Positions 29,453-39,661 of a DNA stretch of 64,000 nt are shown here, piece after piece. The stretch is from an uncultured Verrucomicrobiota bacterium (GTDB lineage Bacteria > Verrucomicrobiota > Verrucomicrobiia > Limisphaerales > J093). The DNA is taken from positions 16,804 to 80,803 of the forward strand of contig CAZHUS010000011.1 of the NCBI GenBank assembly GCA_964535555.1. Direction: 5' to 3'. The translations under genes and the position numbers were made by a program. Under the pieces are notes generated by a model. It had not been told where the DNA came from, searched no databases, and saw only the letters and a program-made list of their open reading frames with translations. The number at the start of each line of letters is the position of its first letter. Position 1 is the stretch's first letter.

Positions 29453-30241
29453 TCAGCGTCCGTTGGCGGTCCCGGGAACGCAATACATCCGGTTCTTTCC
29501 GGGCATTTGGGCTTCCCGCTTCCAGGCCTCGTAACGGACGATCTCGACGTGGCCGTCAATCGCGAGGACCACGCCGCCCTTCTTCCCATGGCGCTTGCCC
29601 AGACCGCCGTCGACGTTGGGATCGGGGTAGCTCGAGCCGTCGTTGTAGCCGTAGCCGAGGACGGCGTTGGCATCGTCCGGCTCCCACATCAGGAAGGCGT
29701 CCGCCGTGAAATCCGAGAGCTTGTAGGTGTTGCCGGCGGGGGTGAGAGCGCCGTAGCCGCAGACGGCGCCGTTCATGACGTAGGTCGCCATCTTGTTGGG
29801 ACGCGCCTTGAACGTTGCGGTGTTGGTCCGGTCGATCGGGCACTTGTAGCTGCGAATCGCGCCCATGAACGGCCAGAGCTGTCCGCCTTCGTAGGCGAGG
29901 ACGTTGTTCGTGGAGTACGGCGCGGCCTGGAGGTTCGGGACCGAACCCCTGCTGCCGTCGTACAACCAGCCCCGGACCCAGGGAGGATTCCAGTTCGGGA
30001 AGGCCATGCGGTCCTGGTAATCCTCGGCGTACATGTGGGTGGCCAGGCCGAGCTGCTTGTTGTTGTTCACACACATCGTCCGATGGCCCTGGTCCTTGGC
30101 GTTCGCCAACGCGGGCAGCAGCAGCCCGGCGAGGATGGCGATGATCGCAATCACCACCAGGAGTTCGATCAGGGTGAACGCGCCGGCGGGACTCGGTGAA
30201 CGGCGGGACGGTGACGGTTCCATGCTCAACATCGTGCTCAT
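29453..30241 (-). CDS. prepilin-type N-terminal cleavage/methylation domain protein, DUF1559 family
   Basis: [25 protein letters not shown], followed by a DUF1559-like body ending ...[10 protein letters not shown]. The start is ambiguous, with ATGs at 30241, 30232 and 30223. Confidence 0.8.
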
Positions 30242-30356
30242 GACAGGTACTCGGGGTCGGGGCAGATTCCGAGCGCCCCGGTGCCCGGACGTTGACATCC
30301 CGCGCCCCTCCGGACAATGAGTCTTTCGCGGCACAGGGCGCGGCCGCAGCCATGAA

Positions 30357-33746: not shown

Positions 33747-34439
33747 TCACGTTCCGCGTTGGTGACCAAACAGGCGGACATGGAGCCGGTCGCATAGCCG
33801 GAAGCCGTACCGCTTGCACACCGGCACCAACTCCGCCGCCCCGCGGGCAACCACGTCACTGGACGTTCCTTCAGGCATCAGGAGAATCCGGGAGGGCGCG
33901 ACCGGCACCTCGAGGGCCTCCACGAGTTCGCGAATCTCCTGGACGTCATCGGGCGAACTCACCACGAACTTCAGTTGGAAGTCATAGGCGGAAATCCACT
34001 CGCGCAACACCGTCGGCTGCAGGCGGAGCGCTTCGTGCCGGACGTGCCAGGCCTGCGGCAGGCGTTGGTCCGGAGCCGAGTTGCGCAGCTTGGGACTCAG
34101 GGACGCCAGGTCGCAGGCGATGCCCTGCGGGGCGATGGTTCCCGCCGTCTCGATGGTGATGTGCCTGGCGAGCTGTCGGAGACCTGCGGCCAGGTCGTGA
34201 ATGCCCTTCGCCACCATGGGTTCGCCCCCGGTGAGCACACAGTGCTGCGCCGGGTAACGGCTCACCTCGTCGAGGATTTGCCCCACGGACATCTCGGCTC
34301 CTTCCGGCTCCCAGGAGGCGTACAGGGTGTCGCACCAGTTGCAGCGGAGGTTGCAGCCGGACGTCCGCACGAAGACGGACGGAACGCCCGTCAGCCCGCC
34401 CTCGCCCTGAACGGAATGGAAGATCTCGGAGATCAGCAT
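33747..34439 (-). CDS. queE: 7-carboxy-7-deazaguanine synthase (radical SAM)
   Basis: MLISEIFHSVQGEGGLTGVPSVFVRTSGCNLRCNWCDT. Confidence 0.9.
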   Translation of the reverse strand: MLISEIFHSVQGEGGLTGVPSVFVRTSGCNLRCNWCDTLYASWEPEGAEMSVGQILDEVSRYPAQHCVLTGGEPMVAKGIHDLAAGLRQLARHITIETAGTIAPQGIACDLASLSPKLRNSAPDQRLPQAWHVRHEALRLQPTVLREWISAYDFQLKFVVSSPDDVQEIRELVEALEVPVAPSRILLMPEGTSSDVVARGAAELVPVCKRYGFRLCDRLHVRLFGHQRGT

Positions 34440-35131
34440 CTGGCGGGAGGACGCGGCGGAAGCGGTCCGGTTTCAAGGTAGGTGGTGGGATCGACCAACC
34501 CGGCGCGCTGAAACGCCTCCCGGCGCTCGACGCAGGTGCCGCACGCGCCGCAGTGAACCTCGCCGCCCTTGTAGCACGACCACGTGCGCGTGAAATCGAT
34601 GCCCAGTTCGACACCGCGCCGCGCGATCTGTGCCTTCGTGAGTTCGATGAACGGACGGAGCACGTCGAGTTGGGCATAGGTGCCGAGCCGGATCGCCGCA
34701 CCCATCGCGCTCATGAATTCCTCACGGCAGTCCGGATAAATGGCGTGGTCGCCCGCGTGAGCCGCGATCACCAGCGCCGTCGCTTCAACGGACTCGGCGT
34801 ACCCGGCCGCGATGGCGAGCATGATGCCGTTGCGGAACGGGACCACGGTCTGCTTCATCGTCGCCTCTTCGTAATGGCCATCCGGGATCGGCCCGCCGGA
34901 TTTCAGGAGCGACGACTGGAAGAGCTCCCCGACGAAGCCGAGCGGAATCACGCGGTGAGCCACTGCCAGCCGTTCGCAGTGCCACGCCGCCAGAGGCAAC
35001 TCGCGGTGATTGTGTCGGGAGCCGTACTCGAAGCTCAAAGCCGCCACGACCTCGTGATGCTCGCGCGCGTCATACAGCGCGGTCACCGAGTCCATGCCGC
35101 CGCTCAGCAGCACCACAACACGACACTTCAT
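34433..35131 (-). CDS. queC: 7-cyano-7-deazaguanine synthase
   Basis: VVLLSGGMDSVT PP-loop motif and the C-terminal Zn cysteines CGACGTCVERREAF. It overlaps queE by 7 nt. Confidence 0.9.
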   Translation of the reverse strand: MKCRVVVLLSGGMDSVTALYDAREHHEVVAALSFEYGSRHNHRELPLAAWHCERLAVAHRVIPLGFVGELFQSSLLKSGGPIPDGHYEEATMKQTVVPFRNGIMLAIAAGYAESVEATALVIAAHAGDHAIYPDCREEFMSAMGAAIRLGTYAQLDVLRPFIELTKAQIARRGVELGIDFTRTWSCYKGGEVHCGACGTCVERREAFQRAGLVDPTTYLETGPLPPRPPARC

Positions 35132-35307
35132 GGGATGGTCGGGGTACCCGGCCTGAAGGTGGTAGGCCCGGTGCCTCCACCGGGCGTAGCGCAGGCTTTC
35201 CAGCCTGCCGGTCCACCGGGCTTTCCAGCCCGGCAGCAGCCTCGGCGATTGGGAAGTCGCCGCGACTGGCAGCCAGCGATCACTGCCTTACCTCCTCGTC
35301 TCATGGT

Positions 35308-35784
35308 TCATTCCGCGCGTCGCTGTTGCCGGTCCGGAACGGCGTGGGCTGTCTCCGCGGCGTCCGGGCCATGTTCCGCAACCACGCTCAGCGCCAGTCC
35401 TCCGCGGGGAGCGAAGCGGCCTTCGATTCGCATTCGTCGCGGTTCGCACGCGCGGACGAGATCGTCGAGAATCCGGTTCACCACCGCCTCGTTGAACGCG
35501 GGCTCGTTGCGATAGGACCCGAGGTAAAGCTTCAGGGACTTCGTCTCGAGGCAGCTCGCCCCCGGCGTGTACTCGATGACGATCTCCGCGAAATCCGGCT
35601 GCCCCGTCACCGGGCAGAGCGAGGTGAAGTCGGGACAATCCAGGCGGATCACGTAGGGGCGACCCGGACGCGGGTTGGGGAAGGACTCCAGGCGCGCCTC
35701 CTTCGGGGTCTGGGGCAGTGTCGCCTGGGCATTCCCGAGGAGGGTGAGCCCGGCGGCGCTCCGATGGCGGCGATTCGACTTCAT
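35308..35784 (-). CDS. queF: NADPH-dependent 7-cyano-7-deazaguanine reductase (unimodular type)
   Basis: DFTSLCPVTGQPDFAEIVIEY with the catalytic Cys, and the QueF motif ETKSLKLYLGSYRN. Confidence 0.9.
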   Translation of the reverse strand: MKSNRRHRSAAGLTLLGNAQATLPQTPKEARLESFPNPRPGRPYVIRLDCPDFTSLCPVTGQPDFAEIVIEYTPGASCLETKSLKLYLGSYRNEPAFNEAVVNRILDDLVRACEPRRMRIEGRFAPRGGLALSVVAEHGPDAAETAHAVPDRQQRRAE

Positions 35785-35869: not shown

Positions 35870-36889
35870 TCAATCGGCAGGCACGCTTTCCTCGAGATTC
35901 AACCAGGCGGCCTCCTGCGGGCTGAGCTCGACCTCGAAGGCTCCCCAGAGACCGGCAAGTTCCTGCTCGGTGCGGGGACCCGCCACGGCGAAGACGTGCG
36001 GCCCCTGGTGCAACACCCAGGCCAGGGCGAGTTGGGTCGGCGTGACTCCCTTCTCGCTCGCCAGGCGTTGCGCACGGTCCAGCCGGGCGAAATTCCGATC
36101 GCTGTAGTAGCAGCGCACGACATCGCTGGTCCAGCGCTCCGACATCAGGGTTCGACGCTCCGCGTCGGACACGAGCGACAGTGGCCGGTACCTGCCGCTG
36201 AAGAAGCCGAGCGCCAGACACGACCACGCGAAAAGCGGGAAACGACGATGCGCATGCCAGTCGCGGCTGAACCGGTCGCACGCGGTGACGCAGTTCGGCC
36301 ACGAGGGCTCGTTCATGAACGCCAGCGCAAGGTTCGGCGAGTTCAGCACAAAGGCGGGCAAGCCGCGTTCAGCCGCGTAGGCATTGGCGGCCTCGAGCCT
36401 GGGAATGGACCAGTTGCTCGCGCCGAAGGCCCGGATGCGGCCGGCGGATTGTTCGCTGGCGAGACACTCGATGATTGGCCCCACCGGCTGGTCGGGATCG
36501 TCCCGATGCAGCACGAGCAGATCGATGTAGTCGGTCTGCAGGCGCCGCAAGGTTTCGTCCAGGTCCGCTCGAATGTCCCGCGGTGTCACGCGCGGGCGGT
36601 GGTATTCGAAAGGGCTGCCCGGGGTCCCGATCGTCTCGTGGTGCGCCACCTTCGCCTGGAGATGGAACGAGGCCCGGTTCCTTCGAGACCGCAACCAGCG
36701 GCCGAGGGTCTCCTCCACGTCGAAATACACGAGCGAAGTGTCGAAACAGTTGCCTCCGCTGGCCACGTACGCGTCGAACAGGCGATCAGCGTAAGCCTGT
36801 TCCACCGAGGCTCCGAAGCTCGTGCCCATCACCAGCCGGCACAAGGGCCGCTCCAGGCCTGCAACGGAGGCGTGGCGGGGAGGCTTCAT
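35870..36889 (-). CDS. aldo/keto reductase family oxidoreductase
   Basis: The start MKPPRHASVAGLERPLCRLVMGTSFG at 36889 overlaps the upstream TIR gene stop as ATGA. AKR blocks: FDTSLVY, DYIDLLVLHRDD, RAFGASNW. Confidence 0.85.
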   Translation of the reverse strand: MKPPRHASVAGLERPLCRLVMGTSFGASVEQAYADRLFDAYVASGGNCFDTSLVYFDVEETLGRWLRSRRNRASFHLQAKVAHHETIGTPGSPFEYHRPRVTPRDIRADLDETLRRLQTDYIDLLVLHRDDPDQPVGPIIECLASEQSAGRIRAFGASNWSIPRLEAANAYAAERGLPAFVLNSPNLALAFMNEPSWPNCVTACDRFSRDWHAHRRFPLFAWSCLALGFFSGRYRPLSLVSDAERRTLMSERWTSDVVRCYYSDRNFARLDRAQRLASEKGVTPTQLALAWVLHQGPHVFAVAGPRTEQELAGLWGAFEVELSPQEAAWLNLEESVPAD

Positions 36890-38154
36890 GGCGCGATGCG
36901 ATCCTGGACCGCTTCCGGTAGCGAGGTCTCGCGCAGCCGAAAGTTGCGAAGATGCACGATTCCTTGCCCGTCTCCGGGCGGCTCTCCCTCGCCCGCATCC
37001 GAGCCAAAATCGATCACCAAGCCGACGATCATCGAGAAATCCGGCACGCGGCGGGCGTATAGATAGTTGCCGTCGGACGTGAACACGGACCACGCACGAT
37101 CGGCGAGGTCGATGTTCAGTGTCGTCCAGCGGTCATCGGTCACCCGGTCAATCCGGGCGCCGCGTTGCAGCATCCAGTGGGTGCCGAACCGGTCGATGAC
37201 CCGATAGGCGAGCGCGATGACCTCGAGCGTACCGGGCTCGGGCTGGGGGCGGCGGGCCTCGAAGGAAAGGTAGCGCCTGCAGGCATTGTTCGGCCCCGGC
37301 GGGTTGCCGGAATTGTCCAGTCCACTGGTGCCACCGGGGCGAAAGGCCACGTTGCTCGAGTACGTGCCTGGGGCGTTGTTGAAGCGGATGGCGAAATGGC
37401 GCAGGCCACCGCGTGCTTGGTCGGGGGACTCGAGATTCGCCGAGATCGAACTGCCTTCCGCATCGGCCCACAGGTAATAAATGGACGTGAAATCGGGAGG
37501 AGCTTCCTGGATCGGGCGGGCGCTCAGCCCGTAGAACGTGTGGAGCAACAGGTCCGGCGCGCGACTCACCTGGACCATCCGTTGCACGTGGCTCAAAACC
37601 GGCTGACGCGAAATCGCGGTCGTACCCGGGCTGACCGACGTGTCGGGATCGCGCGACGGGACGTCCCCCGGAAAGCTCGGCTGGGGCAGGGAACGCGGCC
37701 GCGCCCCGAGGTTCGCCCCCGGATAGGGCGGCATCTCCGCAGGCTTTACCCGCGAGATGGTGACGGCCTTGAGCAACAACTCCTTCGCGGCATCCTGGCC
37801 CAGCCCCACGAGATCGCAGTAGACGCGCGTGTTCAGGAGGGGGCCAGGGTCGCATTCGGCGATCCGGACTGGAATGAGCGCGCGCGCCTTGCCCAAGGGG
37901 TCTTTGCGGAACGCTTCGGCCCACTCGGAGGAGGCGAATTCCGAGTTCAGGTACTCGGGGCTCAGGACGGCGATGACGCGCTGGCAATCGCGGAGGGCGG
38001 TCCGCATCTCGTGGACCCAGTCGGTTCCGGGGGCAAAATCCCACGCCTGGATGCACGTGGTGTAGCCGGCGTCCTCCAGCATCCACGCGAGCCATTCGGC
38101 CCAGGTGCGGTCCTTGCCGGTGTAGCTGATGAAAAAACTGCGCTGCATGGCCAT
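36886..38154 (-). CDS. TIR-domain protein with an uncharacterised beta-rich C-terminal domain of about 290 aa
   Basis: Start is MAMQRSFFISYTGKDRTWAEWLAWMLEDAGY at 38154. TIR blocks: VIAVLSPEYLNSEFASSEWAEAF and LIPVRIAEC. I do not recognise any motif in the C-terminal part (WTTLNIDLADR, IVHLRNFRL). Confidence 0.8.
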   Translation of the reverse strand: MAMQRSFFISYTGKDRTWAEWLAWMLEDAGYTTCIQAWDFAPGTDWVHEMRTALRDCQRVIAVLSPEYLNSEFASSEWAEAFRKDPLGKARALIPVRIAECDPGPLLNTRVYCDLVGLGQDAAKELLLKAVTISRVKPAEMPPYPGANLGARPRSLPQPSFPGDVPSRDPDTSVSPGTTAISRQPVLSHVQRMVQVSRAPDLLLHTFYGLSARPIQEAPPDFTSIYYLWADAEGSSISANLESPDQARGGLRHFAIRFNNAPGTYSSNVAFRPGGTSGLDNSGNPPGPNNACRRYLSFEARRPQPEPGTLEVIALAYRVIDRFGTHWMLQRGARIDRVTDDRWTTLNIDLADRAWSVFTSDGNYLYARRVPDFSMIVGLVIDFGSDAGEGEPPGDGQGIVHLRNFRLRETSLPEAVQDRIAP

Positions 38155-38689
38155 GGATCTGTTCTGCGACGCGTCATGACGGGCTTCGTGTGTGGCCAAC
38201 GTGCCAAACGGGGCAGGGCTCAGCAAGTGTGGTCTCGACCGGGGACCAGGGCCATGAGCGCGGTTGGAGCACCCTCGGAGTCCCTGGTGTCGCTCCTTTC
38301 GTCGCCTCGGGAGATACGGCTCCGCCTTCTGCCACTGCCTGACTGCCGGCAAACGGTCACCCCATCCCGCCATCCCGCCAACGGCAGACGCAGCAATCAG
38401 GGAAATGGCGCACGCCTCCTATACTATAGAGTGACAGGTTCATAGTCTTGACATTGTCTCGGAGCGCCCTTCTTCAGAGGTGGGAACTGAGCATACCCCC
38501 CCCCCGCCAAAGCCCTGACGTCTCACCCAACCTGGACCCGTGCTATTCAACAGGGTCTTCATTCATTCTTCATTCATTCAATAGAGATAGAGTGACAGGT
38601 TCATAGTTATTGACTCCGGGCAGCGGGGCCTTCACCGTCCTGCGTAGTCGAGCCCAGCCAACCCAGCCAACAACAACAAGGCTTCCCGC

Positions 38690-39661
38690 ATGCGCATGGC
38701 ACGAATCAAGATCACCGGTCGAGGCGCCGTCTATCACTGCATCTCCCGCATCGTCGGCGCCCAACGGCTCCTGGGGCCCACGGAGAAGGAGCGCCTCCGC
38801 CAGATGCTCTGGCAACAGGCCGCCTTCAGCGGCATCCAGGTGATCACCTACTGCCTCATGTCCAATCACTTCCACCTGCTCCTGCGTGTGCCGGCCGATC
38901 TCCCTCTCTCCGACGCCCAACTCCTCGAACGCGCCCGCGCCTATTACGGGCCCAAGAGTCTCTACGTCCATACCCTCCAGCACGCCCTGTCTCCGGAAGG
39001 GTCCCTCCCGCAGGACCTCCGCACGGCCCTGCGCGAGCGCATGGCCGACGTCTCGGTGTTCATGAAGGAGCTCAAACAGCGCTTCAGCAAGTGGTTCAAC
39101 CGCACCCGCAACCGCTTTGGCACTCTCTGGGCCGAGCGCTTCAAGAGCCTCCTGGTCGAGGATCAACCCGGCGCCCTGCAGGCCGTGGCCGCCTACATTG
39201 ACCTTAACCCCGTCCGCGCCGGCCTGGTCCAGGATCCCAAGGACTACCGCTGGTGCGGCTATGCCGAGGCCGTCGCGGGGCGACCCGAAGCGCGCCGGGG
39301 CCTGGCCAGCTTCCAGAAAGGCGCGGAATGGGCGCACGTCAGTCGCGCCTACCGGGAGGTGCTCCTGGTCAGCAGCGGCGCGTCGGGAAGCGCAGGCAAG
39401 GTGGCGATCGACCCCCAGGTTCTCCGTCGTGAGTTGAAACGCCAGGCAACCCTGGGCCTGGGCCAGATCCTGAGATTGCGGGTCCGATACTTCACCGACG
39501 GGGTGGTGCTGGGCTCACAGACCTACGTGGAAAGCATCTTCGCCGAGTACCGGGACCGCTTCGGACCCCGACGACGCACCGGCGCCCGCCCCTTGCGCGG
39601 GCTCTCCGCGTTGAGCGATCTCGCCACCCTCCGCGACCTGCAGGTCGATACCGTCGGCTGA
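38690..39661 (+). CDS. IS200/IS605-family Y1 (HUH) transposase, REP-associated (RAYT)-like
   Basis: AVYHCISRIV..., the HUH motif CLMSNHFHLLLRVP, and the catalytic-Tyr region AAYIDLNPVRAGLV. It is a single-copy gene with no recognisable IS ends. Confidence 0.8.
   Translation: MRMARIKITGRGAVYHCISRIVGAQRLLGPTEKERLRQMLWQQAAFSGIQVITYCLMSNHFHLLLRVPADLPLSDAQLLERARAYYGPKSLYVHTLQHALSPEGSLPQDLRTALRERMADVSVFMKELKQRFSKWFNRTRNRFGTLWAERFKSLLVEDQPGALQAVAAYIDLNPVRAGLVQDPKDYRWCGYAEAVAGRPEARRGLASFQKGAEWAHVSRAYREVLLVSSGASGSAGKVAIDPQVLRRELKRQATLGLGQILRLRVRYFTDGVVLGSQTYVESIFAEYRDRFGPRRRTGARPLRGLSALSDLATLRDLQVDTVG

Follow-up and report, generated by a model that had tools for sequence, protein, structure and literature searches.

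What holds a gene for a bacterial TIR protein in translational coupling with a gene for an aldo/keto reductase (AKR)? The question is raised by a locus within a 64,000-nucleotide window (the whole stretch of DNA that was analysed, to whose positions all coordinates below refer) from an uncultured Verrucomicrobiota bacterium (assembly GCA_964535555.1, contig CAZHUS010000011.1, positions 16,804-80,803). Gene 1 of the pair (36886..38154, minus strand) codes for a 422-residue protein, identical to an NCBI-derived entry (P0001, on a 122.5-kb contig), in which an N-terminal TIR domain is joined by a proline-rich linker to a C-terminal domain that we term X; gene 2 (35870..36889, minus strand) codes for a 339-residue AKR. 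The TGA of the TIR gene (36888-36886) shares the tetranucleotide ATGA (36886..36889, minus strand) with the start ATG of the AKR gene (36889-36887), and the pair is present in a single copy within the window. A first inspection of this DNA, made without database searches (the sequence-only reading), had described the 422-residue reading frame with its TIR, its linker and a beta-rich C-terminal domain that could not be placed, as well as the ATGA overlap; the former are borne out by Pfam and by structure prediction and the latter is read directly in the DNA. It had further offered two explanations for the pairing, namely that the AKR acts on a nucleotide made by the TIR or that the two genes are co-transcribed by chance. 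We present evidence that the conserved pairing instead runs through X rather than through the TIR, and we favour, at somewhat better than even probability, the interpretation that the pair is a rare and undescribed conflict module, in which an effector-sensor fusion is combined with an enzyme and whose core is X together with that partner enzyme.

The identity of the effector is the most straightforward part of the answer. The TIR domain (residues 1-133; 37756..38154, minus strand) is recognized by the Pfam model TIR_2 (PF13676) over residues 7-125 with an e-value of 8.5e-36 and 123.6 bits against a cut-off of 28. A full-length AlphaFold2 (AF2) model, with a mean predicted local distance difference test score (pLDDT) of 83.5, places the TIR at residues 1-133, the linker at 136-172 and a folded C-terminal domain at about 180-410; the proline-rich linker as a whole (residues ~134-179; 37618..37755, minus strand) is predicted to be disordered, with pLDDT below 50 at residues 136-167 and 170-172. 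Foldseek searches with the TIR recovered many solved TIR structures, among them those of TLR1, TRR-2, MyD88, PdTIR, BtpA, the SPARTA TIR, AbTir, BtTir, SARM1 and RUN1, with template modelling scores normalized by the target, TM(target), of 0.6-0.76. In a phmmer alignment the segment SEFASSE corresponds to SEWCHYE of TLR1, which puts Glu77 (codon 37924..37926, minus strand) at the position of the conserved TIR glutamate, and the W/F-x3-E spacing is kept in two orthologues (L004 and P0003). The conserved glutamate to which the sequence-only reading had drawn attention is thus at the catalytic position by alignment and is retained in homologues, and on these grounds the TIR of the window is a putative NAD+-cleaving effector. 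A check against PADLOC, which that reading had recommended, gave a divided result: the TIR region is matched by Aga_TIR (residues 5-122 only), and X and the AKR match nothing.

The X domain (residues ~180-410; 36925..37617, minus strand), which we presume to be the part that senses a ligand or couples to the partner, proved to be far less familiar. No model covering it was found in Pfam (75 members scanned), NCBIfam or PADLOC. Its AF2 model, computed with a 60-sequence alignment, is a beta-sandwich with a pLDDT of 91.4 and a predicted template modelling score (pTM) of 0.88, and Foldseek found its best matches in the PDB among carbohydrate-binding modules (CBMs) of the type B beta-jelly-roll kind, i.e. 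CBM11 (e-value 1.4e-6, TM(target) 0.57-0.61) and CBM22. The combination of AlphaFold and Foldseek that had been proposed for this domain thus yielded a confidently predicted CBM-like beta-sandwich. Across the CBM11 and CBM22 matches the e-values range from 1.4e-6 to 1e-4 and TM(target) from 0.41 to 0.61; since sequence identity is just 10-14%, the likeness is one of fold only. In a library of viral structures (BFVD) the Foldseek matches were CenC-like carbohydrate-binding domains and receptor-binding domains of tail fibres. X differs from CBM11 and CBM22 in falling outside their sequence families and in having its own set of near-invariant motifs (LWAD, NVAxRP, THW, F..DGN and PDFS, with many Trp, Arg, Asp and Asn residues). 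Unlike them, it is an intracellular domain whose fusion partners are death effectors, not glycoside hydrolases. The size of the family became visible only by exhaustive search of representatives: when 5.8 billion proteins were searched through a word index, X as the query gave 5 relatives and a 60-sequence profile 6, and a profile run exhaustively against 1.84 billion cluster representatives recovered 233 X clusters, 52 of them with e-values <1e-30. In every case in this survey X is the C-terminal domain of its protein. Accordingly, X constitutes a rare and apparently undescribed domain family of about 230 residues.

To what, then, is the reductase tied? The product of gene 2 is a clear member of the Pfam family Aldo_ket_red (PF00248; e-value 8.7e-45, 153.5 bits against a cut-off of 24), with an intact catalytic tetrad (D50/Y55/K80/H128) that is conserved in 29 members of its subfamily. 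Among AKRs at least 58% identical to it, an X gene lies immediately upstream in all seven neighborhoods, that of the window included; this upstream gene codes for a TIR-X protein in four of them (one a decayed remnant) and for a protein in which X is preceded by two transmembrane helices (2TM-X) in the other three. At a locus in a metagenome-assembled genome (MAG) of the Verrucomicrobiales (L004), a TIR-X orthologue, whose X is 57% identical to that of the window, is followed with a GTGA overlap by an AKR of 76% identity, in surroundings that differ from those of the window (Gfo/Idh/MocA and efp). The same locus is found again in a frameshift-ridden assembly (L005; MAG FR_27, JAOSKK010000036), in which TIR-X, AKR, Gfo/Idh/MocA, ftsA and ftsZ are all split; these frameshifts are probably indel errors of a long-read assembly and not a sign of pseudogenisation. 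In L006 the AKR is intact (80% identical), and the TIR-X gene before it is a remnant (L006 4680-5004): a large deletion in its interior has brought residues 1 to ~57 of the TIR next to the final ~45 residues of X in a different reading frame. The AKR of the remaining TIR-X locus (L022/L023) is 58% identical, its upstream gene is of the TIR_2-X type, and genes for an nSTAND1 NTPase and for another TIR protein adjoin. The 2TM-X loci carry AKRs of 69% (L020, with an integrase downstream), 66% (L007) and 62% (L021) identity. Thus, the adjacency of TIR and AKR is co-conserved, as the sequence-only reading had asked of it, in the sense that it recurs in L004/L005 and L022/L023 and in decayed form in L006.

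The proteins beside the pair in L022/L023 merit separate description. Immediately downstream of TIR-X and AKR lies a gene for an unrelated 448-residue TIR_2 protein, followed by one for a 740-residue nSTAND1 NTPase (L022 5190-8758 and L023 3640-4986), and these two look like a separate candidate defence system of the STAND type. Because of this second pair, we regard the locus as a small defence cluster.

The same neighborhoods bear on the idea that the AKR is merely an unrelated housekeeping gene that happens to be co-transcribed with the TIR gene. AKRs are very common, and in the window the genes queF (preQ1 synthase), queC and queE (33747-35784, minus strand) come next on that strand after the AKR gene, which might then have been a part of a queFCE neighborhood. 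However, the pair occurs in seven different neighborhoods, the other six of which are without que genes, its genes overlap at their stop and start codons, and the AKR belongs to a distinct subfamily tied to X. Chance adjacency is therefore refuted by the neighborhood data, and we consider it extremely improbable.

Beyond the X-tied set, AKRs at 49% and 47% identity have no X neighbor, and Gfo/Idh/MocA and sugar-utilization genes are found there instead. The nearest AKRs without X that we inspected (L024, L025 and P0100; 45-49% identical) adjoin a Gfo/Idh/MocA oxidoreductase gene, to which the AKR is fused in P0100, and genes for sugar transport and glycoside hydrolases lie nearby. As the closest relatives occur in such sugar-gene settings, there is a hint that the ancestral AKR acted on sugars or keto-sugars. 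In the PDB the nearest relatives of the partner AKR are reductases of sugars and ketones (DepB, 8hwn; 7utf; the Kv-beta clade), which share its canonical tetrad. In distinction from such known AKRs, the X-tied enzymes form a dedicated subfamily derived from sugar-metabolic AKRs, and this holds whether the effector next door is a TIR or a membrane module.

A second enzyme occupies the same position in a different part of the X family. A gene for a protein resembling glycoside hydrolase family 15 (GH15) lies directly downstream of the X gene in L001-3, L008, L009, L010, L011, L012 and L014 and on the P0002 contig, and it follows the closest X proteins from outside the Verrucomicrobia (with TIR_2, PCTIR or EAD1 at their N-termini) wherever sequence is available. 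P0002 overlaps its GH15 partner by 4 nt, and P0144 is a natural fusion of EAD1, X and GH15. The X-associated GH15-like proteins are about 433 residues long and keep the motifs WVRDN, HWEE, PELYY and PLLWTQA; the one at L001 3732-5033 and its homologues have no N-terminal beta-sandwich domain. By sequence, their nearest neighbor in the PDB is the GH15-like domain of the alpha regulatory subunit of eukaryotic phosphorylase kinase (e-value 3.8e-7), not the bacterial glucoamylases, and like the AKRs they differ from the known members of their family in being a dedicated subfamily beside X genes. In a neighbor-joining tree of X domains, the AKR-associated and GH15-associated sequences fall into separate clades, each with a bootstrap value of 98.5%, and the effectors are mixed within both. 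Thus, the phylogeny of X tracks the partner enzyme and not the effector. What stays constant is X in combination with a sugar-type enzyme; the effector emerges as a swappable cassette.

These observations also bear on the proposal that the AKR acts on the nucleotide product of the TIR, for instance by reducing the ribose of ADP-ribose (ADPR) or by modifying an isomer of cyclic ADPR, so as to mature or detoxify it. In its favor, the two genes are translationally coupled in the window, and TIR-X is again found with an AKR in L004/L005 and L022/L023; the aldose end of ADPR is, by established chemistry, open to reduction; and in one protein (P0050) a TIR is joined directly to an AKR. Yet three of the seven AKR neighborhoods (L007, L020 and L021) pair the same AKR subfamily with 2TM-X proteins that have no TIR, whereas in the sister clade TIR-X and PCTIR-X are partnered by GH15, and both P0050 and the L006 locus look like products of deletion. 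As the 2TM-X proteins share the AKR and the TIR-X proteins of the sister clade use GH15, the partner enzyme is tied to X and not to NAD chemistry; in particular, the use of the same AKR by proteins lacking a TIR disfavors the proposal, which we judge to be very unlikely.

We also considered P0050 as a Rosetta-stone fusion linking TIR and AKR functions and rejected it. There the TIR runs in frame into an AKR from which the first ~55 residues are missing, the catalytic Asp and Tyr among them; X is absent and the contig is only 1.7 kb in length, so that a deletion derivative comparable to the L006 remnant is more likely. The decay seen in L006 and P0050 suggests that the effector gene imposes a cost and is frequently inactivated.

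The range of effectors fused to X bears on the kind of system involved. Among 75 longer X members, Pfam models at the N-terminus were TIR_2 in 30, CAP12-PCTIR_TIR (PF10137) in 15 and Pkinase in 3, and more rarely EAD1 (2), SIR2_2, a lipase-like alpha/beta hydrolase and DUF4062 (1 each). At least two N-terminal hydrophobic helices are predicted in 43 of 152 X members, and PADLOC labels X-protein N-termini as TIR-TM, ThsB, LmuA-like and PD-T4-6 kinase. By comparison, PADLOC-DB v2.0 contains no families for the X region, for TM-X, or for the AKR or GH15 partner. An interchangeable set of effectors of this kind is seen in abortive infection, that is in CBASS, Pycsar, Thoeris and the EAD-containing conflict systems. 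One member of the family is further elaborated: in L012 (932-1800) an extra N-terminal domain, comprising about 290 residues of a 702-residue protein, precedes TIR-X; it has no Pfam match, and by eye its sequence (...YYVGHG...LLLDACFA...) resembles a caspase-like His/Cys dyad.

How far does the module correspond to the known systems with such effectors? Its closest parallels are Pycsar (PycC with PycTIR or PycTM) and the Cap12 (TIR-SAVED) branch of CBASS, which share with it a two-gene logic of an enzyme plus a fusion of TIR or 2TM to a sensor; moreover, the 15 X members with PF10137 carry the very TIR family named for these effectors. They differ from it in that their sensor is a cyclic nucleotide-binding (cNMP-binding) or SAVED domain and their enzyme a cyclase or CD-NTase, where the module has a CBM-like X and an AKR or GH15, with no nucleotide-signal chemistry evident, and the TIR of the window is of the TIR_2 type. 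In the protein of the window no match to a cNMP-binding or SAVED domain was obtained beyond the TIR region with Pfam or PADLOC, and its partner is an AKR, so the pair falls outside Pycsar and CBASS. Thoeris (ThsB with ThsA) likewise combines a bacterial TIR bearing the conserved glutamate with an enzyme-like gene in a small operon, but in the window ThsA (SIR2 or TM with SLOG/Macro) is missing, the neighbors being the AKR, a RAYT-like transposase and queF, and the Thoeris model NF058526 gives the TIR only 23 bits against a cut-off of 220. Unlike the signal-producing TIR of Thoeris, that of the window is fused to its own sensor and for this reason looks like an effector. SPARTA and other short pAgo systems with TIR-APAZ proteins have similar TIRs (PADLOC Aga_TIR; Foldseek 8qlp and 8oz6), and in both cases a TIR effector is fused to a non-catalytic module that binds a partner, but there is no APAZ domain in the window protein and no pAgo gene in its neighborhood.

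We therefore return to the conflict module built around X and its partner enzyme. From the domain architecture, the predicted fold, the conserved gene pairing, the swapping of effectors and the catalytic motifs we infer a role in defence and a type of ligand for it. In this module gene 1 would be a cytoplasmic fusion of a TIR effector, a flexible linker and the CBM-like X, and gene 2 a translationally coupled AKR, catalytically intact as judged by its motifs, of a subfamily found only beside X genes. X might read a small molecule of the carbohydrate type whose level is set by the partner enzyme, or might read the enzyme itself. A change in this read-out, for example upon phage infection, would drive assembly through X and so switch on the N-terminal effector; for the protein of the window, the TIR would then deplete NAD+ or produce a signal, leading to growth arrest or death. 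A version in which the enzyme removes the ligand, or is itself guarded, appears slightly preferable, as a ligand of the reducing alpha-glucoside type could be open to destruction by hydrolase and reductase alike. The catalytic motifs are intact in all three kinds of protein, namely E77 of the TIR, the D-Y-K-H tetrad of the AKR, and WVRDN, HWEE and PELYY of the GH15-like proteins. Some of the loci also have mobile or defence genes as neighbors, as with the RAYT-like gene in the window, the integrase in L020, an IS3-like open reading frame (ORF) in L012 and the TIR plus nSTAND1 genes in L022; the IS3-like transposase fragment of L012, identified by eye, lies downstream of its GH15 gene.

A bolder formulation casts AKR and GH15 as the signal-controlling enzymes of a carbohydrate-based immunity, in which infection alters the amount of a small, sugar-derived molecule formed or broken down by the enzyme, and X is the intracellular receptor that triggers the TIR, TM, SIR2, kinase or lipase. 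We regard this as possible but rather doubtful. If true, it would be a non-nucleotide counterpart, with a sugar second messenger, of Pycsar, CBASS and Thoeris.

Several observations weigh against the interpretation of the pair as a conflict module. The similarity of X to CBMs is restricted to the fold, and X is a putative binder of carbohydrate. It is not obvious what product a hydrolase and a reductase would share. No X homologue was recovered by tblastn from plasmid and phage collections, nor from IMG/VR, and most of the neighborhoods consist of housekeeping genes and are not defence islands. In one GH15 lineage (L001-3, L008 and L009) the module is flanked by malQ (GH77) on one side and a sugar ABC system on the other, a setting that would also fit a metabolic role. 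As to the constancy of the pairing, the neighborhoods inspected amount to about 20 loci of the 233 X clusters. In L019, whose TIR-X protein is the closest relative (72% identity), the contig stops 160 nt past the stop codon, and the 49-residue beginning of its downstream ORF does not look like an AKR; L016 and L017/L018 (2TM-X or X) show no partner in the short flanks available. Short-flank contigs of this sort without a visible partner include those of two 2TM-X proteins (P0243 and P0248). A profile scan of genome contigs yielded 2 loci, and a metagenome scan with a narrower alignment 8 loci, all of the GH15 clade, as a result of which the 2TM-X proteins are under-sampled with respect to context.

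Part of this evidence would be accommodated equally by a switch outside immunity, in which X monitors the state of a carbohydrate of the cell's own (e.g. trehalose, an intermediate of the keto-sugar type, or glycogen or maltodextrin) and thereby gates NAD+ consumption or membrane permeability in the service of dormancy or stress adaptation, the AKR or GH15 being the metabolic enzyme of the pathway concerned. The CBM-like fold of X, the sugar-type chemistry of both partners, the placement of the GH15 version between malQ and the sugar ABC transporter in L001-3, L008 and L009, the sugar-utilization clusters with Gfo/Idh/MocA in which the nearest non-partner AKRs reside, and the mostly housekeeping character of the neighborhoods all agree with it. 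On the other hand, the assortment of N-termini (TIR, the Cap12/Pycsar TIR, SIR2, 2TM, the PD-T4-6-like kinase, lipase and EAD1) is the signature of conflict systems and not of regulators of metabolism, and the rare and patchy occurrence, the varied flanks, the decayed copies (L006 and P0050) and the occasional integrase, IS element or nSTAND1 gene suggest a mobile, dispensable and costly module. On balance we think such a physiological switch unlikely, if by no means negligible.

With the conflict module as the favored interpretation, its place among immune systems can be stated concisely. To our knowledge, CBASS, Pycsar, Thoeris and type III CRISPR all use messengers derived from nucleotides and sensors that bind nucleotides. 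The module employs the same effector families and the same architecture for swapping them, yet its core is a CBM-like domain with a sugar-type enzyme; the logic of an effector-sensor plus an enzyme is thus familiar, and the fold of the sensor and the classes of enzyme are unprecedented. The absence of any described TIR and AKR pairing, which the sequence-only reading had noted, agrees with what we found in PADLOC, Pfam, NCBIfam and the literature; the literature searched also held no description of a TIR with GH15 or of the X domain, with the proviso that a description under another name is possible. Should the module serve in defence, immune sensing or signalling would gain both a sensor domain and a chemical class (carbohydrates or polyols) that are new to it, and a family of ~230-residue domains without a Pfam model would acquire a function. 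Were its role physiological, a sugar-gated NADase or pore would still be new.

The remaining features of the window are context to the pair and not parts of the module. There is no GH15 gene in the window. The que genes lie 85 nt past the stop codon of the AKR gene, and no queD was seen among them. We considered a functional link of the pair to queF, queC and queE and dropped it, the que genes being absent at all other loci. On the other side of the pair lies a gene on the plus strand (38690..39661) for an IS200-like or RAYT-like Y1 transposase, which scores 43 bits with Pfam Y1_Tnp (cut-off 23) and 59.8 bits with the NCBIfam model REP_Tyr_transpos (cut-off 80). The AT-rich island previously noted next to the pair is, on closer measurement, only an intergenic dip of about 300 bp (38350-38650) with 48-56% GC against a background of ~66%.

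The low-GC stretch that separates the TIR gene from the RAYT-like gene contains two copies (38426-38446 and 38587-38607), 161 nt apart, of the 21-nt sequence ATAGAGTGACAGGTTCATAGT, a perfect direct repeat where none would be expected by chance. The repeat is absent from every other locus fetched and its region has no unusual fold. On the plus strand each copy is followed by a hexamer resembling TTGAC(A), and the two copies may represent either a pair of operator and promoter or the REP-like ends used by the Y1 transposase. Elsewhere in the window (29453-30334, minus strand), and in keeping with the Verrucomicrobial origin to which the closest loci (L004 and L005) point, lies a gene for a protein with a prepilin-type N-terminal cleavage/methylation segment, a kind of protein that is abundant in Verrucomicrobiota and Planctomycetota.

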